Assembly: GCA_963743885.1 (NCBI GenBank)
Contig: CAVURJ010000001.1
Span: 566,321 to 630,320 of the forward strand
Direction: 5' to 3'
Source of the DNA: Candidatus Moraniibacteriota bacterium
Lineage (GTDB): Bacteria > Patescibacteriota > Minisyncoccia > Moranbacterales > UBA1568
Length of the DNA: 64,000 nt
This document shows positions 8,607 to 49,560 of the stretch, in pieces. A program made the translations under genes and the position numbers. The notes under the pieces are model-generated. The model saw nothing but the letters and a program-made list of their open reading frames with translations. It did not search any database and was not told the DNA's origin. How positions within the stretch are numbered: position 1 is the stretch's first letter; every line of letters starts with the position of its first letter.

Positions 8607-11244
8607 ATGAACATCGGAAAATTCACTACCAAGAGTCAGGAAGCCATCCGCAATGCGCAGGAGATCGCGCTTTCGCGGAACAACCCGCAGATGGATACAG
8701 CACACCTGCTCTATGCACTGTTGCTCCAGCCTGATTCCATCGTGCCGGCCGTTTTCGGCGAGCTTGAGGCGGATATTGAGAAGTTGAAGGGCGGCATCCT
8801 CGCTGAGATAGACAAGTTTCCGCAGGCGGAAGCGGGTGTACTTGGGAGTCTGTATTTGTCACCGGGATTTGCACGGACATTGTCTGAAGCTGAAGACCAG
8901 ATGGGAAAGATCGGGGATGATTTCGTCTCGACCGAGCATCTTTTGCTCTCACTGCTTTCCGTCGGCGGTCCCATGAAGACGCTCCTCGAGAAGAACGGTG
9001 TGAAGTATGATGATGTGCTCCGCATACTCTCTGAGCTCCGTGGCGGACAGAAGGTGGAAAGCCAGGACCCTGAGCAGACGTACCAGGCGCTCGAGAAGTA
9101 CGCTATCAATCTGACCGAGCTCGCACGCGCTGAGAAGCTCGATCCAGTCATTGGTCGTGATGACGAGATCCGCCGTGTGATGCAGATCCTTTCGCGTCGC
9201 ACCAAGAACAATCCCGTCTTGATTGGCGAGGCTGGCACTGGCAAGACCGCCATCGCGGAAGGTCTGGCGCAGCGCATCGTCTCGGGTGACGTGCCGGAGA
9301 ACTTGAAGGGCAAGGAAGTCATATCGCTCGATCTCGGAGCGCTCCTTGCGGGTGCGAAATTTCGCGGCGAGTTCGAGGAGCGGCTCAAGGCTATCCTCAA
9401 AGAGATTGAGCGTTCGGCTGACCGTTTCATCCTTTTCATCGATGAGCTGCATACGCTTGTGGGTGCCGGCGCGACCGAGGGTGCACTCGATGCGTCGAAC
9501 ATGCTAAAGCCCGCGCTCTCGCGTGGCAGACTCCGCACGATCGGCGCAACGACGATCAAGGAGTACCAGCGTTATATCGAGAAGGACGCAGCGCTTGAGC
9601 GGCGTTTCCAGCCGGTCATCGTGAGTGAGCCGTCGGAAGAGGATGCAATCGCCATCCTGCGCGGCATCAAGGAGAAATACGCGCTCCATCACGGCGTGAA
9701 GATCACCGATGATGCGCTCATCGCAGCTGTGAAGCTTTCCAAGCGTTATATCGCTGACCGTTTCTTGCCGGACAAGGCGATCGACCTCATCGATGAGGCG
9801 GCGTCGCTCCGCCGTATGGAGATTGATTCGATGCCGACTGAACTTGATCAGGATGAGCGGAGCATCCGGCGCCTGGAGATCGAGAAGCCGCGCGCTTGAG
9901 AAGGAGGGCGGCGCCGAGAAGAAGGTACGGGAAATCAACCGGGAGCTCGCGGAGCTCCGGGAGCGTTCGCAGAAGCTGTCGCTCCGTTGGAAGACCGAAC
10001 GCGAACTCATCATGGCGATGCGTGGGCACAAGGCTGATATTGATAAACTAAGGAGCGAGGCTGAGATGGCCGAGCGCCAAGGTGAGCTCGACCGTGTGGC
10101 GGAGATCCGCTATGGTCGCATCCCAGAGATCGAGAAGAAGCTCCTTGCTGAAGAGAAACGCCTTGTGAAGCTTCAGAAGGACGGTTCGATTCTGCACGAG
10201 GAGATCAGCGAGGAGGATATCGCCGCGGTCGTCTCGCGTGCGACTGGTATCCCAATCGCCAAGATGCTCGAGAAGGAAGCGGAGAAGCTCGTCCATATGG
10301 AAGCGGCGCTCCAGACGAGGGTCATTGGTCAGGATGATGCCGTGAAAGCGGTCGCGAGTGCGATCCGACGCTCGAGAGCAGGGCTCGCCGAGGAGACGAA
10401 GCCGATCGGATCATTCATTTTCCTTGGATTGACCGGCGTCGGCAAGACCGAGCTCGCCAAGGCTTTGGCGCAGTTCCTCTTTGATGATGAGAAAGCGCTG
10501 GTGCGCGTGGATATGAGCGAATACATGGAGTCGCACTCGGTCGCCAAGATGATTGGGTCGCCCCCGGGCTATGTGGGGTATGAGGAGGGTGGTCAGCTGA
10601 CGGAGACTATCCGTCGGAGGCCGTACAGCGTCGTGCTCTTCGATGAGATCGAGAAGGCGCATCCGGATGTTTTCAACGCGCTGCTCCAAATCCTCGATGA
10701 TGGACGCCTGACCGATAGCAAAGGGCGTGTCGTCAATTTCAAGAATACCGTCATTATCATGACGTCGAATGTCGGGTCCGATATCCTGGTCCGGGCCAAG
10801 GGCCTCGGTTTCAAGGGTGACCGGAGCGGTGATGATGGGACGTTGTCCGAGGATGAGATCCGCGAGCGTATCCTCTCCAGCCTGCGCGAGCGCTTCAAGC
10901 CGGAATTCCTGAATCGTATCGATGAGACGATTATCTTCCATCCGCTCTCTGAAAAGGTCTTCGGCGGCATCGTTGATTTGCAGCTCGCGCGTGTTGTCGA
11001 GCGCCTTGCGAAGCAGGGGGTGCGGATCCGGTTTGCGGCACAAGTAAAGGCGTATCTCGCGAAGAAGGGGTATGATCCCGCCTATGGCGCCCGCCCGCTC
11101 AAGCGGCTGATCCAGAACGAGATCCTCGATCCGCTGTCGCTTGAAATTCTCGAGAAAAAGGTGCAGGGGGGCGATGTAGTGGAAACCTCCATAGGGAAGG
11201 ACAGGGTGGTTTTTAAAAAGATGGAAAAGAAAAGGAAAAAATAG
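8607..11244 (+). CDS. clpB: Chaperone ClpB (Hsp100 disaggregase), interrupted by an apparent +1 frameshift near 9887-9895
   Basis: An N-domain, NBD1 ([27 protein letters not shown]), an M-domain coiled coil, NBD2 ([31 protein letters not shown]) and the [10 protein letters not shown] motif are all present. The reading frame switches in the gccgcgcgc run: IEK-PRA* in one frame, then ALEKEGG... in the next. Confidence 0.85.
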
Positions 11245-17100: not shown

Positions 17101-18558
17101 ATGGCCAAAGACTCGGTTGTCCTGCGTTTTGATAACGTATCATTCGAATATAGCCACGGGAAGCCGATTCTTGAGGAGGTGAGTTTTAGCGTGCGTAGTG
17201 GAGCGAAGTTCACGCTCATGGGACAGAACGGCGCCGGCAAGAGCTCGCTTTTTAAACTGATCACTGGTGAGAATGTGCCACAGTCCGGCCGTGTTTCGGT
17301 GGATCCGGGTGCGACCGTCGCGATCGCCCGCCAGGTCATCCCGCGCGCGGATCTCGATCTTACGGTCGAAGAGTTTTTCGCGAAGCACTTCAGCGGCAAG
17401 GACTGGGAGCTTCCGGGTCGTATCAAGGACGTGCTCGATGTCGTCAACATGCCGATGCCGCCGCTTGATAAGAAGATCATGGCGTTCTCCGGCGGGCAGC
17501 AGGCGCGAATCCTTCTCGCCTCGGCACTTATGGATGATCCAGATGTCCTCCTCCTTGATGAGCCGACCAACAATCTCGACTACGCTGGCATCGCGCACCT
17601 GACGCAGTTTCTGATTGAATACCAGAAGACCGTCATCGTCATTTCGCATGATGCGGAGTTTTTGAATTCCTTTACCCAGGGCGTGCTGTATCTCGATGTC
17701 TTCACACACAAGATGGAGCAGTATACCGGCGACTATTACGACGTGGTGGATGAGATCAAACGTCGCATCGAGAAGGCGCAGAGCGAGAACGTGCGCCTCG
17801 AGCGGACCATCCAGGAAAAGAAGGATCAGGCCAACGTCTTCGCCAACAAGGGCGGTAAGCTCCGCGGTGTCGCTAAGCGCATGCGTACTCTCGCATCCGA
17901 TCTTGAGGAGAACAAAGTCGATGTGCGGCAGGAAGATAAGACACTGACGCCGTTTGAAATCGCGTGCGAGGATATCCTCGGCCGTATCGTGCATATCAAG
18001 ACCGTATCGCTCATCACGGAGATGGGCCCGACGGTCAAACAGGTCGACATGGACCTTAAACGCAATACACACCTGCTCGTCTCGGGTCCGAACGGTATCG
18101 GTAAGAGCACGTTCCTCGAGTCGCTGGCCGCCGCTGATCCGGAGCGCGTGACAATCGCACCGGGAGTGAAGGTCGGATACTATCGCCAGGATTTCTCGAC
18201 GCTCGATTTCGACAAGACGGTGGCCGAGACGCTCATCAATGTGACGGAAGATCGGAATATGGAGACGGTCTATCGGACCGCGGCGCGCTTCCTTTTGCCG
18301 GCTGAGCTCGTCCAGAACAAAGTGGAGAGTCTGTCAGAGGGGCAGAAGGGGCTGCTCATGTTTGCTTATCTTTTTCTCCAGAAGCCGGACGTACTCATTC
18401 TTGATGAGCCGACCAATCATATCAACTTCCGCCATATCCCGGTTATTGCCGAGGCGCTCGACAAGTACAAGGGGACGATGATCTTCGTCTCACACGTGCC
18501 GGACTTCGTGGCCGAGATCCGCATCGATGAGGTGCTCGATCTCGAATCACTTGCCTAA
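17101..18558 (+). CDS. ABC-F family ATPase (two ABC cassettes, no transmembrane domain)
   Basis: Two Walker A motifs (GQNGAGKSSL and GPNGIGKST) and two signature motifs (LSGGQQARI, LSEGQKG). A TACAAT box ends 1 nt before the ATG and there is no Shine-Dalgarno sequence, so the transcript is possibly leaderless. Confidence 0.8.
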   Translation: MAKDSVVLRFDNVSFEYSHGKPILEEVSFSVRSGAKFTLMGQNGAGKSSLFKLITGENVPQSGRVSVDPGATVAIARQVIPRADLDLTVEEFFAKHFSGKDWELPGRIKDVLDVVNMPMPPLDKKIMAFSGGQQARILLASALMDDPDVLLLDEPTNNLDYAGIAHLTQFLIEYQKTVIVISHDAEFLNSFTQGVLYLDVFTHKMEQYTGDYYDVVDEIKRRIEKAQSENVRLERTIQEKKDQANVFANKGGKLRGVAKRMRTLASDLEENKVDVRQEDKTLTPFEIACEDILGRIVHIKTVSLITEMGPTVKQVDMDLKRNTHLLVSGPNGIGKSTFLESLAAADPERVTIAPGVKVGYYRQDFSTLDFDKTVAETLINVTEDRNMETVYRTAARFLLPAELVQNKVESLSEGQKGLLMFAYLFLQKPDVLILDEPTNHINFRHIPVIAEALDKYKGTMIFVSHVPDFVAEIRIDEVLDLESLA

Positions 18559-18568
18559 TTCTGTCGTA

Positions 18569-18597
18569 TTGACAGGATATGTTTTTTGGTGTATAAT
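18569..18597 (+). promoter_or_regulatory. Consensus sigma70 promoter: TTGACA, 17 nt spacer, TATAAT
   Basis: ttgacaggatatgttttttggtgtataat matches the consensus perfectly. An AGGAGAGAG ribosome-binding site precedes the 18653 ATG. Confidence 0.8.
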
Positions 18598-18652
18598 GGT
18601 ACGTTAGTATCAGTTCTTTTTTTGTTGTATTTTTTTCAATAGGAGAGAGAAA

Positions 18653-18886
18653 ATGGCAGTGATGACGGTTGATCAGTCCCAGGCAGTCGAGGCGTGTTGT
18701 GCCGCCCAAATCAAGATGAAGAGCGCGTTTCATGACGTTGGTCTGGCCGATAATGATCGGAAAGCTGTACTGGATGAGGCGCTCGTTCATGTTATGGGCG
18801 GTTCGTTTGTCGGAGACAAGAAGGGTACGTGTCCGGCGTGTTGGGGATTCTTCATGAATTACCTCAAGCACGGAAGGAAACAGTAG
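18653..18886 (+). CDS. Small Cys-containing peptide precursor with a double-glycine-type leader; a possible bacteriocin or RiPP precursor
   Basis: 77 aa in total. The leader ends ...AVLDEALVHVMGG, which fits the pattern L-x-x-x-L-x-x-V-x-GG. The putative 27-aa core is SFVGDKKGTCPACWGFFMNYLKHGRKQ. It sits between the consensus promoter and a strong terminator. Confidence 0.5.
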   Translation: MAVMTVDQSQAVEACCAAQIKMKSAFHDVGLADNDRKAVLDEALVHVMGGSFVGDKKGTCPACWGFFMNYLKHGRKQ

Positions 18887-18888
18887 GT

Positions 18889-18931
18889 AAAAGGCGGGAA
18901 TTCTCCATGAGAACTCCCGCCTGTATTTTTT
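18889..18931. terminator. Bidirectional rho-independent terminator
   Basis: Stem GGCGGGAATTCTC / GAGAACTCCCGCC (one mismatch), flanked by AAAA upstream and TGTATTTTTT downstream. Confidence 0.75.
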
Positions 18932-18956
18932 AAAAAATAGCGGCACGCTCTCCAGT

Positions 18957-19415
18957 TCACTCGTCTTTTCCGAAGAAGAGGGAAAGGAAGAGGTATCCGA
19001 TGCCGAGGAAGGCAAGGATGAGGATTGGGATGAGGATGAGCGGGAACTTGTAGAGCGAGACGGCGAGGATACCGACGATCCAGAGGATACCAATGGAGAG
19101 GAGCGGGTTGCGGCGGCGGAGTCCGGAGGCGAAGTCGAGATTGAGGAACCGTCCGAGGATGGAGAGTAGGAATGATCCGATGAGGAGGATGATGAGGAAG
19201 GTCGCGAGATTGAGTCGGACTGCGACGAAGGTAGGGAGAAGCGTCTCGAGTGTGAAGAGCGCCGCGAATACGGTGAAGCCGATGAGGAGCGCCTCAGCGA
19301 GCAATGCGTAAGCCACATGTAGCGATCCGGCAACTCGCCATCTTTCGAAGACTACCTTTATTTTTTGATTCAGAATACCCATAATTTTTCGTAAAGCACA
19401 ATTTTCAAAACACAA
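18957..19415 (-). CDS. Small four-helix membrane protein; a candidate immunity or accessory protein for the adjacent peptide
   Basis: Four hydrophobic helices. It is convergent with the peptide gene, and the start may instead be at 19382 (MGILNQ...). Confidence 0.45.
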   Translation of the reverse strand: MCFENCALRKIMGILNQKIKVVFERWRVAGSLHVAYALLAEALLIGFTVFAALFTLETLLPTFVAVRLNLATFLIILLIGSFLLSILGRFLNLDFASGLRRRNPLLSIGILWIVGILAVSLYKFPLILIPILILAFLGIGYLFLSLFFGKDE

Positions 19416-19530
19416 ACCCCAAACAAAACACAGATTTCAAATTTCAAAGCACGGATTTTCTTATAGTTTGTTTTGGTTTTGCGGATTGTGCTTTGTTTGG
19501 TTTTTGTGCTTTTTGTCTTTGTGTTTTTTA
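19371..19530. repeat. Low-complexity imperfect inverted repeat spacer (caaaccccaaacaaaacaca / tgttttggttttgcgg...)
   Basis: Read directly from the sequence. Confidence 0.45.
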
Positions 19531-20682
19531 TTAATTCCCAGCCCCAAAGCGGGCGAACAATCGTTGCTTGACCTGTGAGAGAAGTGTCAGCATGTTGCGG
19601 CTGCTCGTGCCGGTCTCGAGCGAGAGCGTGAGAGTGTTGATGTCTATGTCTGTGTCGCTGCCGCCCAAGCGGATCTCAAAATTGTTGCCATTGCCTGATG
19701 CGAGAGCGTCGATAGGGGTGGTGCAGGAAAAGGCGCGGCCAAAGGCAGTGGGAGTGGTATCGCAGGATGCCGAGACGAGGCTCGCGCTTCCCGAGACAGC
19801 GATCGGCGAGATATGCTCGAGGAGAAACGAAAGATAGTCCGTATCGGTGATCGGGTGTTTCGAGCCCTGATCGATCAAGAAGTAGTTTCTGGTGTCGGTA
19901 TCAAGGAAGAGGGTGCCGTCCGGATGCGTGTCGCCCAAGAGGAATATTCGGCCGCGCTTGTAGATACCGATCTCCTCTTCGCTTCCTGGGATAACGTCTT
20001 CGAAGCGGTAGCCGAGCCCGAGGAAGATCTCGGCGCTGCCGATTGGCCGCATCTCGGTATCAGAGACGATGACGAAGATACCGTCCGCGAATGAGACGAG
20101 CGATCCGATACGAAAGCCGATCCAGTCATCCGAGGCCGGATGCTGGGAGAGGAGGCTCTCGGTGACGCGGAGAGCATCCGGTGCGCGGTGGCGCGAGAGG
20201 TAGGCGGCTTCGCTTACGAACGGATGGAGCATGCCGTCGCGGAGGGCATAGTACGTATCGCCGACCTGGTAGAGTGTTCCTTCGTCTGGTCGTCCCAGAG
20301 TGGGGCCGTCCGGTAGGAGGAATCCGCGGTAGGAACGCCGGATGGAGAATCGGAGCGTTTCTGGTAGCTCGGATTTTTTCTCGAGCGCTGCTTCGATGGT
20401 TGCGGAGGAGAAATCGCCGAAAGCGGCGGCGTCGGCGACGAGTGTGCCAGCGGCTTCGATCTTGCCGTTCTCACGGAGTATCCCTGTGTCGGAACGGGGA
20501 TCAAGGAGCGTGTTCTTACTTGAACCTGGAGTCCGGAAGTCAAAGGGGAATCCGAGGATCGGGAAGAGCGTCCGATATGCGAATGACCCGATGAGGAAGA
20601 GCGCGATGACATAGAGGCCTATGCGGAGCTTGGTATAGGTCTGTTCGAGATGTTTCGGGATAGGAGAGATGGTCGGCAGCAT
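19531..20682 (-). CDS. Hypothetical membrane-anchored protein in an operon with the GT-C glycosyltransferase
   Basis: N-terminal TM (LRIGLYVIALFLIGSFAY), no recognised domain, and a 12-nt gap to the upstream gene. Confidence 0.45.
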   Translation of the reverse strand: MLPTISPIPKHLEQTYTKLRIGLYVIALFLIGSFAYRTLFPILGFPFDFRTPGSSKNTLLDPRSDTGILRENGKIEAAGTLVADAAAFGDFSSATIEAALEKKSELPETLRFSIRRSYRGFLLPDGPTLGRPDEGTLYQVGDTYYALRDGMLHPFVSEAAYLSRHRAPDALRVTESLLSQHPASDDWIGFRIGSLVSFADGIFVIVSDTEMRPIGSAEIFLGLGYRFEDVIPGSEEEIGIYKRGRIFLLGDTHPDGTLFLDTDTRNYFLIDQGSKHPITDTDYLSFLLEHISPIAVSGSASLVSASCDTTPTAFGRAFSCTTPIDALASGNGNNFEIRLGGSDTDIDINTLTLSLETGTSSRNMLTLLSQVKQRLFARFGAGN

Positions 20683-22612: not shown

Positions 22613-25075
22613 ATGGACAAGAGCTTTCCTTTTTGGTATTACGCGGACGGTCTCAGCGGAGCCGCGCGCCTATTCAGGAATTATTCGCGATTCATCCCGT
22701 ACCGGTTTAATACGTGGGGACTGCTTTCGACGATCCTTTCGCCATGGAAGCGCGATGTCTCGCCGAAGACCTGGCGCGGGTTCCATCCGATCAAGTCGCT
22801 CTCGCTGCTTCTGAATAACATCATGTCGCGCATCGCCGGCATGTTCGTCCGGGTGCCGATGATCGTCTTTGGCTTAGTGTTCTGGATAATCGTGTCAGTG
22901 TTCGGTCTGGTACTCCTCGCGGCCTATACTCTCGCGCCGGCGCTCTTATCGGTCGGACTGGTGATGTTCCCATGGAACCCGGTCTTCGGCGGCCTAGCTG
23001 CTGGTCTTGGGGCTCTCGGCCTCGTGGCGGCAGTCATCGGCTATTCGTCTCGTGAGACTGATGATGGCGATAGATCTCTCGATATATCCGCGGTGCGGAA
23101 GAAGAAGTGGTTCCCGCGTGTGCTTGCTCGTCTTGGTGTCGAGGAGGGGATGGATGTCAGTGCTGCCATTCGCGATGCGGCGAGCTTTGCGGAGTTTCTC
23201 GCGTCGATCGGATCAGACCAGGCATCATACGAGCGGTCAGTTGGCATCGAGCGCGCTGCAGAAGACCGTCGTGCCGATGAGCGGCGTTTTTGGACGTGGG
23301 AAAAGCTTTCCGAGACGCAGCCGATCGGCAAGGGTTGGCGCTATGCGTACACGCCACACCTCGACCGGTATGCGCTCGACCTTTCCGAATACGATCCGAC
23401 CGAATACGACCGGGCTGTGCTCGTCGGGCGTGAGGAGGAGCTGCGTGTGGTCAAAATCGTCCTCGAGCGGCCGGTACAGAACAGTATCCTCTTGGTCGGT
23501 GATCCTGGCATCGGCAAGAAGACCTTCATCCATCATCTGGCCCGCCTCATCCGGACCAATGCGTTCCAGGACCCGTACTTCCGCGATATGCGCATCCTCA
23601 TGCTCGATCTGGGGCTCGCGGTGAGTGATGCAGTGAATAGCGGTGAGGATGTCGACAATGCCATCCGCACGCTTTTTCATGAAGCAGCATTTGCCGGCAA
23701 TGTTACTCTCGTCATCGAGGATTTCGATCTTTATATCGGCGGCGACGCTTCGCGGCACAATCTGGCACCGATCCTTTCTACATACCTCTCGTTGCCGTCG
23801 TTCCGTGTTATCGGCACGTCGACCGCGGCGCGCTATCATGCTGTCGCGAAGGCTGATGACCAGACGCTCAAGTCGCTCGAGGTCGTCTATCTGCGCGAGA
23901 CGAACGAGCAGCAAACTTTCGATATTCTCGTGCAGCATTTCGAAGAGACTGAAGCGCGGCAGGTTGTCTTCACACTCAAGGGCTTCGAGAGCATCATCAC
24001 AGCTGCCGGCCGCTACAATTGGGAGTTCCCGTTCCCTGAGCGCGCGCTCGATCTGGCTCAGGAAGTGCTCATCTACTGGTGCGATAGCGCTGAGAGCCGT
24101 TTCATCACTCCAGAGGTCGTGGATGCGTTTATCACAATCAAGACGGGTGTGCCGACCGGTACGATCAGTGCGGAAGAGAAGGACAAATTGCTCCGTCTCG
24201 AAGAGCATCTCCACGAACGTGTTATCGGTCAGGAAGAGGCGGTGAAGCAGGTGGCGGAAGCGATGCGCAAGTCGCGCGCCGGCTTCGGCAACAGGAAGCG
24301 TCCGCTCGGAAGCTTCATCTTCCTTGGTCCTTCCGGTGTTGGCAAGACGGAGACAGTCAAGGCGTTCGCTGAGAGCTATTTCGGCAGCGATGAGAAGATG
24401 ATCCGTCTCGACATGAGCGAATACCAGACAGAAGAGTCCGTCGAGCGTATGATCGGGTCGCGTGATACTGGTGTCCAGGGCCAGCTGACGGTCGCCGCCA
24501 AGGAACATCCATTCTCCATATTGTTGCTTGATGAGATCGAGAAGGCGTATCCACGGATGCTCGATTTGTTCCTTCAGATTCTTGATGAAGGTTACGTGAC
24601 GGATGCCTTCGGTGAGAAGGTGAGCTTCCGCAATATGGTGATTATCGCTACGTCGAATGCCGGTGCGCCGCTCATCAAGGACCTGGTCGCACAGGGAGTG
24701 AAGGGCGATGCGATCCGCAAGCAGGTGCTCGATGAGGTCGTGAAGAAAGGGCTATTCCGTCTCGAATTCTTGGGTCGTTTCGATGGCATCATTTTCTTCG
24801 AGCCGCTCCGGAACGAGCAGTTGTTCGAGGTGACCGAGCTCAAGTTGGCTGCTTTCGCCAAGCGGTTGAAGGAAGAGAAGGATATCGATATCCTCTTTGC
24901 GCCGGAAGTGACGGCAAAGATCGTAGAAAATGGGTTCGAGCCCGAGTTCGGCATGCGTTCCATCAACCGCTATATCGAGAATACTATCGAAGATGCCGTC
25001 GTGAAGAGAATCATCGCCGGAGAGCTCTCGTCTGGCGGGTCATTGACAGTATATCCGGATGATCTGGTAGAATAG
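22613..25075 (+). CDS. Hsp100/Clp-family double AAA+ ATPase with an N-terminal multi-pass membrane anchor
   Basis: Three or four TM helices in residues 60-150. D1 is degenerate (GDPGIGKKT; VIEDFD in place of a DE Walker B). D2 is canonical (GPSGVGKTE, LLLDEIEKA, ATSNAG, the LEFLGRFD motif). There is no coiled-coil M-domain and no IGF/IGL ClpP-docking loop. Confidence 0.7.
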   Translation: MDKSFPFWYYADGLSGAARLFRNYSRFIPYRFNTWGLLSTILSPWKRDVSPKTWRGFHPIKSLSLLLNNIMSRIAGMFVRVPMIVFGLVFWIIVSVFGLVLLAAYTLAPALLSVGLVMFPWNPVFGGLAAGLGALGLVAAVIGYSSRETDDGDRSLDISAVRKKKWFPRVLARLGVEEGMDVSAAIRDAASFAEFLASIGSDQASYERSVGIERAAEDRRADERRFWTWEKLSETQPIGKGWRYAYTPHLDRYALDLSEYDPTEYDRAVLVGREEELRVVKIVLERPVQNSILLVGDPGIGKKTFIHHLARLIRTNAFQDPYFRDMRILMLDLGLAVSDAVNSGEDVDNAIRTLFHEAAFAGNVTLVIEDFDLYIGGDASRHNLAPILSTYLSLPSFRVIGTSTAARYHAVAKADDQTLKSLEVVYLRETNEQQTFDILVQHFEETEARQVVFTLKGFESIITAAGRYNWEFPFPERALDLAQEVLIYWCDSAESRFITPEVVDAFITIKTGVPTGTISAEEKDKLLRLEEHLHERVIGQEEAVKQVAEAMRKSRAGFGNRKRPLGSFIFLGPSGVGKTETVKAFAESYFGSDEKMIRLDMSEYQTEESVERMIGSRDTGVQGQLTVAAKEHPFSILLLDEIEKAYPRMLDLFLQILDEGYVTDAFGEKVSFRNMVIIATSNAGAPLIKDLVAQGVKGDAIRKQVLDEVVKKGLFRLEFLGRFDGIIFFEPLRNEQLFEVTELKLAAFAKRLKEEKDIDILFAPEVTAKIVENGFEPEFGMRSINRYIENTIEDAVVKRIIAGELSSGGSLTVYPDDLVE

Positions 25076-33526: not shown

Positions 33527-35149
33527 ATGGGCCAGATCATTCTTGTAGCAGCCATATTGAATATCTTCCTCGGGGCACTCGCTTTGGGAAGAGGCGAGAG
33601 AAAGAAAGAGATCATTTCTTTCGGTTGGTTCTGCATCATTACTGGCTTTTGGGGACTTTCGAATTTCATCGCGTACTATGTTTTTTTTGATGCGGTCCTT
33701 GTCCGGCTGACATATGCCTCTGGTGCGCTCATGGTCGCATCGCTCTTTGCCTGGTCGCTTTTCTACAACGGCCAACTCAAAAGCTATCGGTTGCATATCA
33801 CGGCCTATCTCGCCGGTATCATCATGGGAATACTCTCGATGTTTGACGGATTCGTTGTCGGGGCGATCCGAAGCGTGAGCGTGAGCGGCATCGACGCGGA
33901 TGAAGGCCGATTCTTCGGTCTCTTCAGTCTTTATCTTTTCCTGATGATTATCGGATCGGTTGTCCATGTCGCTATTCTTCGGCATCGGTTTTCCGGTCTT
34001 AAGAGACGTCAGGCGGGGTTTGTCCTGATCGGTGTCTCTATTTTCATGCTCAATACCCTTTTGGTGAGCGGTGTGTTGCCGACATTCGGTATTTTTGACT
34101 ATACCAATCTTGATAGCCCGAGTTCGCTCATCTTCGTCCTGTTCACTATGGTAGCCGTGGTACGTCATAGGCTGCTTGGCGCTAAAGTCATCCTGGCGCA
34201 GGTTTTGGTGGGTGTCCTTGTGGCGACTTCGCTCATCCAGCTGCTTAATTCCCGATCCTTTTCGGATTGGGTGATGAATTCTGTGGCATTGATGACGGTT
34301 CTTGTTGTTGGAGCGCTTCTTGTGAAAAGCGTTATGGACGAAGTGCGGCGCAAGGATGAGCTCGAAAGGATGACGAAGCAGCTGAAGGCTGCCAATCAGG
34401 AGCTGCGTCGATTGGATGTCGCCAAGTCGGAGTTCATTTCCATCGCGTCGCATCAGCTGCGCACGCCGCTCTCCGCCGTCAAAGGCTATGTTTCGCTCAT
34501 GCTCGAGGGATCATATGGTGTAGTAAGCACCAAGATGCAGGACGCACTCGATAAGGTGTATCTCATCAATGGTCACCTTGCTTCGCTCGTTGATGACCTC
34601 CTGGATATCTCACGTATCGAATCCGGGAAGGTAGAGTACCATTTTATCCCGCTCAGCCTTGAGCTGATCGTCTCTGAGATTGCCGACATGTTCGCTGTCT
34701 TAGCAAGGAGTAGGGGGGTATCTTTGGAGCTAGTCTCTCCGAAGAAACCGTTGCCGAAACTTCCGCTCGACGAGAGCAAGATACGTGAAGTCGTTTCGAA
34801 CCTCATCGACAATGCTCTCAAGTATACCGAGCGGGGCAGGGTGAAGGTGTCTTTCGAATCGCATGCGCGGTCGGTGCGGCTCATCGTTGAAGACACGGGC
34901 GCAGGCATCGCTGCTGAGGATATGCCGCGCCTTTTTGAGAAATTCATCCGCAGCCGCAACACATCGGTAATCGATGTCTCGGGCACTGGTCTCGGGCTCT
35001 ATGTGAGCCGCAATTTCATCGAAGCGCACGGCGGCCGGATCTGGGCAGAGTCTGAAGGTCTCGGCAGAGGCTCGCGTTTTATCGTGGAGTTGCCAATCCG
35101 ACGGGAGAAAAAAGTGGTTTCACTAGCAAAAACCGATTTTAGTCATTGA
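33527..35149 (+). CDS. Sensor histidine kinase with a polytopic N-terminal membrane domain
   Basis: HisKA H-box SEFISIASHQLRTPL, and HATPase_c motifs (N box, G1 DTGAGI, G2 GTGLGLYV). Confidence 0.85.
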   Translation: MGQIILVAAILNIFLGALALGRGERKKEIISFGWFCIITGFWGLSNFIAYYVFFDAVLVRLTYASGALMVASLFAWSLFYNGQLKSYRLHITAYLAGIIMGILSMFDGFVVGAIRSVSVSGIDADEGRFFGLFSLYLFLMIIGSVVHVAILRHRFSGLKRRQAGFVLIGVSIFMLNTLLVSGVLPTFGIFDYTNLDSPSSLIFVLFTMVAVVRHRLLGAKVILAQVLVGVLVATSLIQLLNSRSFSDWVMNSVALMTVLVVGALLVKSVMDEVRRKDELERMTKQLKAANQELRRLDVAKSEFISIASHQLRTPLSAVKGYVSLMLEGSYGVVSTKMQDALDKVYLINGHLASLVDDLLDISRIESGKVEYHFIPLSLELIVSEIADMFAVLARSRGVSLELVSPKKPLPKLPLDESKIREVVSNLIDNALKYTERGRVKVSFESHARSVRLIVEDTGAGIAAEDMPRLFEKFIRSRNTSVIDVSGTGLGLYVSRNFIEAHGGRIWAESEGLGRGSRFIVELPIRREKKVVSLAKTDFSH

Positions 35150-37168: not shown

Positions 37169-38857
37169 ATGTTACTTATTCCTGAAAGCATCTTTCTGTG
37201 GGGAACAGTGTTCCTTGTATTTTTTATTGGAGCCTTTGTTGTTTATAAAGATCCGAAACAATATTTGAATAAGAGTTTTTTTCTATTCACGTTGGCAGTG
37301 ATAATTTGGATTATTGCTGTATACTTTGAGGATAATGTTTCCAATCCGATAACGCGCATTTATTTACTTAATCTTGATTTTTCAGCAGGCGCTTTTTTGG
37401 TGTTTAGTTTGTTGCTGTTGTGTCTTGATATGGTCCAGTCTGATTTGGTGAGAAGGCCACTAGCAAGAGTGTTAATTTTTGTTATTCCGGTTATTTTGAG
37501 TGTTCTTATTTTTAGTTCAGATTTTATTATAAGTGGTTATGAATTTTCAAAATTTGGCATACTAGTTCCGATGTATGGTAGTTTTGGATTTCTTTATGAT
37601 GTGATAGTTGCTATTGTCGCTTTGGCTGGACTTGGCATTGTGTTATGGAAATATAATGACGTTGGTTCTGCTGATAAGACTCGTTACGCATATTTCATGG
37701 TTGGACTTCTTCTTTCTATATTGACCGCGCTGGTCACTAATGTCATCCTTGGCGATTATATACAGAATAGCCCGTATTATAGTATTTATTCTCGCTTCGG
37801 AATTTATGGGATGCTTTTTATAGTCTTGTTTCCGGGTTACGCGATTATTCGGCATAAGCTTTTTAATATTCGTGTAATTGCTGCTGAGACGCTTTCTTTT
37901 CTGATGCTACTTATCATGTTCGTTCAGATATTCTTTTCTGAGAACATGTTCCAGATTTTTGCCAGAGCCCTTTTGTTTCTCGTGTTCTTTATTCTTGTCG
38001 TCATGCTTATTCGTTCCATTGAGAACGAAGTCGAGCGCAAGGAGGAGCTGCAGATGATCTCGGACAGCTTGGCGTCGGCCAATGAGCGGCTGCGACGGCT
38101 CGATAACGCCAAGTCGGAGTTCATCTCCATCGCGTCGCACCAGTTGCGCACACCGCTTACTGCCATCAAGGGATATGTCTCGCTCATCCTCGAGGGGTCG
38201 TACGGCAAGGTGAGCGCGGAAGTGGAGGACGTGCTCGAGAAAGTGTACGGGGTCCAGGGGCAGCTCGCGCAGCTCGTCGAGGATTTGCTCAATGTCTCTC
38301 GCATCGAGTCTGGTCGTATCCAGTATCAGTATGCGCCGGTCCGACTTGAGATGATCATCACTGATCTGGTTGATATGTTTTCAATCACAGCCAAGGACAA
38401 GGGAATCGCGCTTCGGATGCATCTCTCCAAGAAGGCGTTGCCACAGCTTACGATCGATGCCGGGAAGATCAAGGAGACAATCTCCAATCTTATCGATAAC
38501 GCCGTGAAGTATACGCCGCAGGGTGGGGAAGTAAGGATTTTTCTTGAGGGCGATGAAGAGCGTCACGTGGCGCGCGTGACCGTCGAGGATACCGGTGTCG
38601 GCATCCTTCCGGAAGATAAGGACAGACTGTTTGAAAAGTTCGTGAGGAGCAAGGAGACGGCGAAGATGGTGACATCTGGCACGGGTCTCGGCCTGTACGT
38701 TGGCAAGAACTTCGTCGAGGCGCATGGCGGCCGGATCTGGGCAGAATCGGAAGGTCAGGGGCAAGGGGCGCGTTTCATTGTGGAGCTGCCGTACGAGTAT
38801 TCCGCTGCCGGTCGTGATGAGGTCGCGACATTCGGCAAGAGCTATGAGGGGAAGTAG
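37169..38857 (+). CDS. Sensor histidine kinase, paralog of the gene at 33527, with a different AT-rich N-terminal membrane sensor domain
   Basis: H-box SEFISIASHQLRTPL and HATPase_c motifs. The N-terminal ~260 codons are AT-rich, while the kinase core is GC-rich. Confidence 0.85.
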   Translation: MLLIPESIFLWGTVFLVFFIGAFVVYKDPKQYLNKSFFLFTLAVIIWIIAVYFEDNVSNPITRIYLLNLDFSAGAFLVFSLLLLCLDMVQSDLVRRPLARVLIFVIPVILSVLIFSSDFIISGYEFSKFGILVPMYGSFGFLYDVIVAIVALAGLGIVLWKYNDVGSADKTRYAYFMVGLLLSILTALVTNVILGDYIQNSPYYSIYSRFGIYGMLFIVLFPGYAIIRHKLFNIRVIAAETLSFLMLLIMFVQIFFSENMFQIFARALLFLVFFILVVMLIRSIENEVERKEELQMISDSLASANERLRRLDNAKSEFISIASHQLRTPLTAIKGYVSLILEGSYGKVSAEVEDVLEKVYGVQGQLAQLVEDLLNVSRIESGRIQYQYAPVRLEMIITDLVDMFSITAKDKGIALRMHLSKKALPQLTIDAGKIKETISNLIDNAVKYTPQGGEVRIFLEGDEERHVARVTVEDTGVGILPEDKDRLFEKFVRSKETAKMVTSGTGLGLYVGKNFVEAHGGRIWAESEGQGQGARFIVELPYEYSAAGRDEVATFGKSYEGK

Positions 38858-38935: not shown

Positions 38936-39778
38936 ATGCCGAAGATACTGTTTGTCGAGGATGATCCGTTCATCGCTGAGATCTACAAGAAGAAGTTCGA
39001 GTCATCCGGCTTTGATGTGCTCAATGTCGCAAATGGTAAGGCCGTCCTTAAGGAAGCCAAGGAACAGAAGTTCGACCTCATCCTCTTGGACCTGGTGATC
39101 CCAGAGATGAGCGGCACTGAGGTGCTCCGTGAGCTCCGGCACAATCCGGACTATGATCCAGATATGAAGATTGTCGTCTTCAGCAACCTTTCCAGTCAGG
39201 AGGATCGCGACCAGTGTCTCAAGCTCGGAGCCAATGGCTTTATTTCCAAGACTGAGTTTTCTCCGTCCGAGGTAATCGGAGAAATCAATCGTTTCCTCCG
39301 CCAGTTCGATGAGCGCGAAAAAAATCTCGAGCGCGATGGCCAGGATGAGCAGGCGGCCGAGGAAGTGCGTCGCCAGGGCAAGGGTGCTGGCAAGAAAATT
39401 CTCTTTATCGAGGATGAGCCGGTCTTTGTCGAGATGTTTGGCAAGCGCCTTCGCGACGAAGGGTACGGAGTGACGGCGGTGCGCGATGGTGTCTCGGGTC
39501 TCCAGGCGGCGATCGATGGGACGTTTGATCTCGTCATCTGCGATATCATGATGCCGGGTATGGATGGCCGTGAGCTTGTGACCAAGTTGCGCGAGGCCGA
39601 GAAGGAGAATAATACGCCAGTCTTTGTATTCTCAGCATCGCTCGATACGGCCGAGCTCAAGGAGCTTGAGGCGACGCATGATGTGGAAAAGACGTTCCTC
39701 AAGACTCAGATCACGCCGAGCGAGCTGACATATGCTGTGAATGATTTTTTCAAGGAACGCGAGGAGAAAACTGCCTAA
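38936..39778 (+). CDS. Response regulator with two tandem receiver domains and no output domain
   Basis: REC1: ILFVEDDP...DLILLDLVIPEMSG...K. REC2: ILFIEDEP...DLVICDIMMPGMDG. An acidic linker separates them. Confidence 0.8.
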   Translation: MPKILFVEDDPFIAEIYKKKFESSGFDVLNVANGKAVLKEAKEQKFDLILLDLVIPEMSGTEVLRELRHNPDYDPDMKIVVFSNLSSQEDRDQCLKLGANGFISKTEFSPSEVIGEINRFLRQFDEREKNLERDGQDEQAAEEVRRQGKGAGKKILFIEDEPVFVEMFGKRLRDEGYGVTAVRDGVSGLQAAIDGTFDLVICDIMMPGMDGRELVTKLREAEKENNTPVFVFSASLDTAELKELEATHDVEKTFLKTQITPSELTYAVNDFFKEREEKTA

Positions 39779-49349: not shown

Positions 49350-49423
49350 GGTCGCATAGTTCAGTTGGTTAGAACGTTCGATTCACATTCGAAAGGTCCC
49401 TGGTTCGAGTCCAGGTGCGACCA
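49350..49423 (+). tRNA. tRNA-Val (anticodon CAC)
   Basis: Clean cloverleaf: acceptor GGTCGCA/TGCGACC, D-arm AGTTCAGTTGGTTAGAACG, anticodon stem TTCGA/TCGAA with loop TTCACAT, T-arm CCTGG-TTCGAGT-CCAGG, discriminator A. No CCA is encoded. Confidence 0.85.
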
Positions 49424-49440
49424 CAGGAGGAGTTTAAGTG

Positions 49441-49560
49441 GTTCAGTTTCTGCTCGGAGTTGAGCAGTTGGTTACCCGCCCGTACCGAACGGTACGTTCG
49501 GGCGGGGAGCACAGCATTCACATTGCTGGGGTCACTGGTTCGAATCCAGTATTGTCCACA
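49441..49560 (+). other. tRNA-derived partial duplicate: D-loop, the 32-nt insert in reverse orientation, and a tRNA-Val(CAC) 3' portion (CAGCATTCACATTGCTG-GGGTC-ACTGGTTCGAATCCAGT-ATTGTCC)
   Basis: It shares a 40-nt exact block with 49613-49653. No matching 5' acceptor strand is present. Confidence 0.45.

Follow-up and report, generated by a model that had tools for sequence, protein, structure and literature searches.

A probable orphan small-protein gene cassette at a variable junction of two core genes in a Candidatus Moranbacteria lineage

Introduction

What does a short gene encode that stands behind a perfect consensus promoter, alone between two convergent core genes, in a Candidatus Moranbacteria genome? 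A preliminary description of this locus took its 77-residue product for a double-glycine-leader peptide and the small four-helix membrane protein encoded next to it for the immunity protein. Here we follow up both proposals in the window (the whole stretch of 64,000 nucleotides that was analysed, to which all positions refer) and in related loci. The window holds housekeeping genes, among them those for ProS, IspH, an AspS/AsnS-type synthetase, LysS and SerS, for MreB, MreC, PBP2, GreA, RRF and RseP, and for glycosyltransferases, ClpB-like ATPases, two 7TM histidine kinases and a VirD4/TrwB-like ATPase. By the genes on its flanks, the locus belongs to Candidatus Moranbacteria/Moraniibacteriota (CPR/Patescibacteria).

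Results

The gene, here called pep77, lies in a lineage-specific segment of about 400 bp (18559–18956) that comprises the whole cassette and is bounded on either side by the stop codon of a core gene, the two core genes being convergent. The upstream flank is a conserved core gene for an ABC-F ATPase (17101–18558, plus strand; 485 aa, soluble). That this protein has no membrane domain, as described before, is borne out by Pfam, which finds two ABC_tran domains; its best NCBIfam match is ribo_prot_ABC_F with 313 bits, under the 380-bit cutoff. The other flank is the gene for a membrane protein with four transmembrane helices (4-TM; 18957–19382, minus strand; 141 aa). This gene closes the array p597–p383–memb and lies outside the cassette.

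The cassette had been presented as a stand-alone unit with unusually strong transcription signals, and this was found to be so: promoter, Shine–Dalgarno (SD) sequence, open reading frame (ORF) and terminator form a self-contained unit. The sigma-70-type promoter (18569–18597, plus strand) consists of TTGACA and TATAAT separated by 17 nt. Its score of 12/12 makes it the sole perfect match on both strands of the 64-kb window, for which shuffled sequences give an expectation of 0.02. The AGGAGA reported as ribosome-binding site is read directly at 18641–18646 (plus strand), 6 nt before the ATG of pep77. Such a signal is not the rule in this genome, as an SD core precedes four of 46 window genes, which is below the background frequency (12.7% of 15-mers).

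An intrinsic terminator, a hairpin with a T-run (18892–18931, inverted repeat I3), follows the ORF. It had been described as having a 13-bp stem. Hairpin and T-run are present, but the arms (18892–18905 and 18909–18922) are 14 nt long and 93% complementary (13 of 14 bp) with one A–C mismatch, and do not form a perfect 13-bp stem. The loop has 3 nt, then comes GTATTTTTT. The calculated energy of the hairpin is −21.9 kcal/mol (z = −3.5). On its upstream side an A-run yields TTTT on the minus strand, 36 nt past the stop codon of the convergent gene. Since the hairpin is thus followed by TTTT on the minus strand too, the terminator is probably bidirectional and shared by pep77 and the 4-TM gene.

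The ORF (18653–18886, plus strand) has 77 codons, and its product is the 77-residue protein quoted before, with an N-terminal part ending in Gly-Gly and a C-terminal part of 27 residues containing two Cys. The N-terminal 50 residues are acidic (net charge about −3) and end with VHVMGG. The C-terminal 27 residues, SFVGDKKGTCPACWGFFMNYLKHGRKQ, are cationic (about +4) and aromatic and include the sequence CPAC. In total there are four cysteines, Cys15 and Cys16 in addition to the two of CPAC. The proposed processing site, Gly49-Gly50, can be read directly from the codons at 18797–18802 (plus strand).

Whether this ORF is a gene was assessed by statistical analysis. When the 289 nt from the likely transcription start to the hairpin were shuffled, the same strand contained an ORF of 77 codons or more in only 0.4% (with ATG as start) to 1.1% (with any start codon) of the cases. 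The GC content at codon positions 1/2/3 is 0.60/0.39/0.60, compared with 0.60/0.40/0.67 for the host genes (31 long window genes). Because a chance ORF of this kind is rare and the codon-position GC is host-like, pep77 is most likely a real protein gene; that these signals and the ORF occur together by chance is very unlikely. From signals and statistics, translation into a small protein is far more likely than an RNA product. The GC content of the ORF is native-like (0.526, window 0.535), and gene callers predicted the gene in each of two independent assemblies, where its neighbours are identical. The codon log-likelihood of 0.168 per codon exceeds that of 92% of off-frame windows and corresponds to the 11th percentile of in-frame 77-codon windows from real genes. 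The codon usage of pep77 is thus at the low end of the range of real genes. As to purifying selection, pep77 offers no homologue for comparison; the case for translation is one of signals and statistics.

A homology search, which the preliminary description had proposed, was carried out for pep77 and returned only the self-match in all databases. No relatives were found among 5.8 billion protein clusters by word-indexed search, nor among 1.84 billion representatives by exhaustive HMMER search. Back-translated scans of JGI metagenome and IMG/VR viral contigs, tblastn against phages and plasmids, and a search of the PDB sequences were equally negative. No family matched in Pfam or NCBIfam at E-values up to 1, there was no hit in PHROGs or PADLOC, and no HMA, thioredoxin or glutaredoxin model recognized the protein. 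At the DNA level, blastn of the cassette against all 22 related loci matched only the flanking genes. By these comparisons, neither the DNA of the cassette (about 400 bp) nor its protein has a counterpart in the relatives and databases that were searched. With its intact ORF, expression signals, coding-like statistics and lack of homologues, pep77 presents itself as a taxonomically restricted orphan small-protein gene.

Several candidate origins were tried and rejected. Insertion of a mobile element was dismissed, because apart from the terminator no direct or inverted repeats flank the cassette and there is no second copy in the 64-kb window; nor is there a prophage or mobile-element context at the cassette, with neither an integrase nor a PHROG match. 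Duplication of a part of the ABC-F gene was rejected as well. Residues 26–53 of pep77 show a recurrent weak tblastn similarity to the ABC-F N-terminus of every relative (25–36% identity over 28 aa, E = 2–38), and a 16-nt near-repeat (14/16 identical) occurs at the 3′ end of the ABC-F gene (18526–18541) and within the ORF (18773–18788), but neither is significant, and the Pfam model ABC_tran gives no match to pep77 at E-values up to 1. Descent from the junction gene of the close relatives (see below) was discarded because blastp similarities are at chance level and blastn matches are confined to the flanks.

The site itself was compared with 22 related loci, which were fetched for this purpose; 17 relatives keep both flanks, and 11 of these belong to the set fetched first. 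The array p597–p383–memb, convergent with ABC-F–GT4, is kept in relatives, and the ABC-F protein is 75–85% identical across 11 of them. In eight of the 11 first-fetched relatives with both flanks (L001, L003, L004, L005, L007, L008, L010 and L011) the junction is empty, with the stop codons of the ABC-F and 4-TM genes 0–50 nt apart. DNA homology to the relatives ends at the ABC-F stop codon and restarts at that of the membrane gene (blastn, alignment A1), so that 18559–18956 is a clean block of about 400 bp which is missing from them. A relative of pep77 was found in none of the 22 related loci.

The remaining three of the 11 carry inserts unrelated to pep77. L006 has a 48-aa DUF5670 membrane peptide in membrane-gene orientation, L009 an ORF for a membrane protein of about 213–230 aa in ABC-F orientation, and L002 a promoter-to-terminator unit of 145 nt without ORF. 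In the closest relatives, as judged by a membrane protein 70–76% identical (L018, L019/L020 and L021/L022), the junction encodes a protein of 151–175 aa with a signal peptide, in ABC-F orientation. When pep77 was compared with these proteins and the other junction ORFs by blastp, similarities were at chance level only (best E = 29). In L018, L019 and L021 the junction gene is in each case equipped with its own promoter of the form TTGAC(A/G)–17–TA(C/T)AAG, a GGAGG-type SD sequence and an intrinsic terminator. Strong signals are therefore the usual pattern among accessory units of the junction. The stop-to-stop junction of ABC-F and 4-TM genes is a variable, cargo-swapping hot spot across Moranbacteria lineages.

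The 4-TM gene behaves differently from the cassette. The gene and its four transmembrane helices exist as described, but the start assigned to it was at 19415. This TTG codon, which would give 152 aa, is unlikely, and the ATG at 19382 (141 aa), used in the gene call, is almost certainly the true start, as 30 homologues have lengths of 130–147 aa. The family comprises 49 homologous clusters, and the few named by a source bear the label Moranbacteria/Moraniibacteriota. Invariant are G19, Y25, E30 and the motif ETLLPTF. In all 17 relatives with both flanks the gene is found in the same p597–p383–memb/ABC-F synteny, always last after p383, whether the junction is filled or empty. The AlphaFold2 model (pLDDT 72) has an amphipathic N-terminal helix and four long transmembrane helices; no fold match was obtained in the PDB, and a metagenome scan with this protein found nothing. 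On these comparisons the 4-TM protein is a member of a conserved core family and independent of the cassette. It had been proposed as the immunity protein of the peptide. Because the family is a conserved core family that is present where the peptide is absent, and pep77 is confined to one lineage, the protein is not its dedicated immunity partner, and by the comparison of loci that claim is refuted. A bacteriocin/immunity pair was accordingly rejected, given the conservation of the 4-TM family in 49 clusters, in the same synteny, and the lack of any pep77 relative in the 22 loci.

The Gly-Gly motif was compared with the leader consensus ELx3E(I/L)x2(I/V)xG(G/A), as quoted in PMC3140520. The residues at positions −1 and −2 (Gly, Gly for G(G/A)), −4 (Val for I/V) and −7 (Leu for I/L) fit, and Val at −12 is a conservative replacement of Leu. 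Misfits are Ala for Glu at −8 (a Glu is found at −9), Ala for Glu at −13 and Arg at −15, where the consensus is hydrophobic. A relaxed pattern, hydrophobic residues at −12, −7 and −4 before x-GG, occurs nine times in 17,792 residues of ordinary window proteins, or about 0.04 times per 77 aa. The exact variant of pep77, acidic at −9, is not found in these 17,792 residues and appears in 0.17% of shuffled pep77 sequences. The motif is, by its sequence, suggestive but not diagnostic.

The search for a matching export system, which covered the window and the adjoining 5 kb or so on its left, was negative. The statement that no C39-peptidase ABC exporter is encoded in the window proved correct: among its 48 large ORFs there is no domain of Peptidase_C39, of an ABC exporter membrane part, of HlyD or of a RiPP-modifying enzyme, and no domain of LanM/LanBC, radical SAM/SPASM, YcaO, ATP-grasp or similar modification enzymes was seen among the window proteins. 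In the roughly 5 kb past the left end of the window, genes for a C39-peptidase ABC exporter (PCAT), an accessory protein of the HlyD type, a modification enzyme or a dedicated immunity protein were likewise not found. No bacteriocin, Nif11 (TIGR03798) or NHLP (TIGR03793) model matched pep77, and the literature gave nothing specific on bacteriocins or PCATs of CPR bacteria.

Single-sequence AlphaFold2 prediction for pep77 gave a model of low confidence (pLDDT 57.7) with helices at 8–27, 33–48 and 61–73. In this low-confidence model Gly49-Gly50, together with the sequence SFVGDKKGTC, belongs to the loop 49–60 that connects helices 2 and 3, helix 3 begins with CPAC, and helix 1 carries Cys15/Cys16. 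The confidence is too low for a fold search, and the picture of three helices and four Cys is a weak one.

Discussion

The data are best explained by an orphan, autonomously expressed gene for an accessory small protein at a variable stop-to-stop junction of Moranbacteria, and we regard this reading as probable, though by no means assured. An autonomous accessory cassette (promoter, SD sequence, 77-codon ORF and terminator) would have settled at the variable junction of two convergent core genes in one Candidatus Moranbacteria lineage. Its transcription by the housekeeping sigma factor would be strong and constitutive, translation would start at the ATG behind the SD sequence, and transcription would end at the hairpin, which the convergent membrane gene would use as well. 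This would yield a small, soluble, taxonomically restricted protein. Its predicted fold would consist of two helices of acidic character, a loop rich in Gly and, starting from CPAC, a C-terminal helix that is basic and aromatic, and the four Cys could, according to the model, make up a site for redox chemistry or metal binding. An accessory, strain-specific role would be most likely, for example in host interaction or conflict, as with the other genes that occupy the junction. The context of the Gly-Gly and the division into an acidic leader and a basic core would also be expected of an exported peptide, and to that extent they count against this explanation.

The same unit may be viewed as a non-coding RNA gene of about 330 nt between strong promoter and strong terminator, with the ORF and the AGGAGA being fortuitous. 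Units without ORF, running from promoter to terminator, do seem to be present at the junction, in L018 (about 115 nt) and in L002, and the full transcript of the cassette folds better than shuffled sequences (z = −3.35). However, once the terminator hairpin is left out, folding is unremarkable (z = −2.15; 8 of 200 shuffles are as good). Rfam detects only three tRNAs in the window at the gathering threshold, and even at E-values up to 10 the best result in 18500–19600 is a chance match of 19 bits. The lack of a pep77 protein homologue and the rare use of SD sequences by the core genes of this genome fit an RNA. An ORF that fills the unit is rare by chance, though, its SD sequence is at optimal spacing, its codon-position GC is coding-like, and the accessory protein genes at the junction in relatives share the promoter–SD–terminator style. 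We consider an RNA gene rather unlikely. The unit might otherwise be a functionless, decayed remnant, expressed or not, either a fragment of an earlier junction gene or a partial duplication of a neighbour. The similarities to the ABC-F gene and protein described above point in this direction, and so may an apparent resemblance of TCPAC and the following helix to the start of a glutaredoxin-type CPxC sequence, after which the ORF ends 14 residues on. But none of these similarities is significant, there is none to the 151–175-aa proteins of the closest relatives, and intact, perfect expression signals are not expected in decay. A remnant is accordingly the least probable of the explanations weighed here, to be given very little credence.

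The export proposal deserves more attention. On this reading pep77 is a double-glycine-leader precursor, which a distant PCAT cuts after Gly50 and from which it exports the cationic, aromatic 27-residue peptide SFVGDKKGTCPACWGFFMNYLKHGRKQ as bacteriocin, signal or effector. Several features are as would be expected: the Gly-Gly is preceded by a predicted helix with Val, Leu and Val at −4, −7 and −12, the exact pattern is absent from the 17.8k residues of window proteins and rare in shuffles, leader and core differ in charge, and the closest relatives encode secreted proteins at the same junction, so that an exported product would suit the site. Precursors encoded far from their exporter are known, for example the prochlorosins and the pneumococcal Blp/Cib peptides. 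On the other hand, Ala at −8 and Arg at −15 depart from the consensus quoted in PMC3140520, and the relaxed pattern recurs in ordinary window proteins. The leader would have 50 residues, compared with the 15–30 aa given as typical of class II bacteriocins in PMC2850506. The Nif11, NHLP and bacteriocin models do not match, and neither a PCAT nor an HlyD-type, modification or dedicated immunity gene is found in the 64 kb and about 5 kb to the left. Furthermore, no family of related precursors appears in the clusters and representatives searched. Taken together, we judge export by a distant PCAT to be improbable. Still more doubtful is the full scenario, in which a CPR episymbiont whose genome measures about 650 kb would produce a strongly transcribed Gly-Gly-leader precursor. 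Its CPAC core, exported by a distant C39 ABC transporter, would have the host bacterium or competitors as its target and represent a new bacteriocin or effector family without relatives, at a junction where secreted cargo is exchanged from lineage to lineage.

The cassette was also compared with known systems. Pep77 is like the Gly-Gly-leader precursors (class II bacteriocins, competence/Blp pheromones, Nif11/NHLP RiPPs) in its small size, in having its Gly-Gly preceded by an amphipathic helix in which positions −4, −7 and −12 are hydrophobic, and in the combination of an acidic N-terminal part with a basic aromatic C-terminal part containing two Cys. It differs from them by the lack of Glu at −8 and of a hydrophobic residue at −15, by its 50-aa leader, and by having no curated model match and no relatives; its locus differs in that the 64 kb contain neither a PCAT nor genes for accessory functions, modification or dedicated immunity, and in that the 4-TM neighbour is a core gene which also occurs where the peptide is absent. 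Autonomous ‘moron’-style cassettes and orphan small-gene cassettes are similar in being self-contained units. The pep77 cassette lies exactly between the stop codons of two conserved genes in one lineage only, and other, unrelated self-contained units occupy the junction in relatives. Unlike ‘moron’-style cassettes, it has no integrase, flanking repeats or PHROG match, and its composition is native-like rather than foreign. With the junction cargo of the Moranbacteria relatives it shares the position, and with that of L009 and L018–L022 also the ABC-F orientation. The near-consensus promoter, SD sequence and intrinsic terminator are found likewise in L018, L019 and L021. That cargo has signal peptides or transmembrane helices, whereas pep77 has neither, and there is no sequence similarity.

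On the likeliest reading, an orphan accessory small-protein gene, pep77 is a further example of a lineage-specific small gene, nothing out of the ordinary in CPR genomes assembled from metagenomes. Should the Gly-Gly reading be correct, this phylum would have yielded a first peptide serving as weapon or signal, a claim for which the evidence is thin. The junction offers a clear, alignable site for studying gain and loss of accessory genes in minimal symbiont genomes. Moreover, the accessory units have a canonical promoter and an SD sequence, whereas the core genes are almost without SD sequences, a contrast suggesting that translation may be initiated in two ways.

Accessory units and a spacer hairpin around the membrane gene

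In related Moranbacteria loci, other units occupy the junction between the ABC-F gene and the gene for the conserved four-TM membrane protein. Locus L018 carries on the minus strand (approximately 5130–5330) a promoter-to-terminator unit without an ORF, in which TTGACA-17-TACACT is followed by about 115 nt and then by a GC-rich hairpin with a T-run. A further ORF-less promoter-to-terminator unit, 145 nt long, is found at this junction in L002 (1650–1800). Neither unit gave a match in Rfam, and both are candidate small RNAs. The junction of L006 (11540–12030) encodes a 48-residue peptide with two TM segments that belongs to DUF5670 (E = 1.5e-13), and this unit has its own terminator.

On the other side of the membrane gene, which is the last of the p597-p383-memb array, a long imperfect hairpin with approximately 30 paired positions (19392–19513, minus strand) lies between the p383 stop (19531) and the membrane-gene start (19382). 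One of its arms is A/C-rich on the transcribed strand and the other G/U-rich. The hairpin folds with an energy of −37.3 kcal/mol (z = −4.97), a value equalled by 0 of 200 shuffled sequences. Only chance-level matches (mir-578, MIR2599) were obtained from Rfam. The length of the spacer is not constant in the relatives, where it ranges from 25 to 130 nt.

Shine-Dalgarno motifs and a non-significant resemblance of pep77 to ABC-F

The upstream regions of 46 ORFs of the window were searched for a GGAG, GAGG or AGGA core at positions −18 to −4. Such a core was present for four of the 46, compared with 12.7% of background 15-mers; core genes of the window almost never have a Shine-Dalgarno motif. Many genes of the window show a TATA-like A/T-rich sequence directly at the ATG. 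Clear GGAGG-type motifs are found for accessory genes of the junction, namely the 77-codon orphan ORF pep77 and those of L018, L019 and L021.

A 16-nt near-repeat (14/16 identical) connects the 3' end of the ABC-F gene (18526–18541) with the pep77 ORF (18773–18788). At the protein level, residues 26–53 of pep77 resemble the ABC-F N-terminus (residues ~10–37) with a non-significant 25–36% identity over 28 residues (E = 2–38), which recurs in every relative. Both similarities probably reflect chance plus codon bias.

Other genes of the window

Two ClpB-like AAA+ genes were found (9793–11244 and 22613–25075). The short form (483 residues) consists of AAA_2 and D2-small domains only; the long form (820 residues) has an N-terminal membrane region, and its gene adjoins the p597-p383-memb array in all relatives. 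Two tRNA-Val(CAC) genes are arranged in tandem, 63 nt apart (49350–49424 and 49487–49559). The second may be a degenerate duplicate, because it scores only 32.6 bits versus 72.3 bits for the first.

A VirD4/TrwB-like coupling ATPase of 710 residues (1950–4082) ends in a C-terminal treble-clef zinc finger. Its gene is preceded, just beyond the window edge, by that of a DUF8128 protein, and the two may form a DNA-uptake or conjugation-type module.

Signalling genes comprise two paralogous histidine kinases (33527–35149 and 37169–38857), each with an N-terminal 7TM sensor (HisKA_7TM), and a 280-residue response regulator with two receiver domains (38936–39778). Two 7TM kinases and a regulator represent a notable signalling outlay for a genome of ~650 kb.
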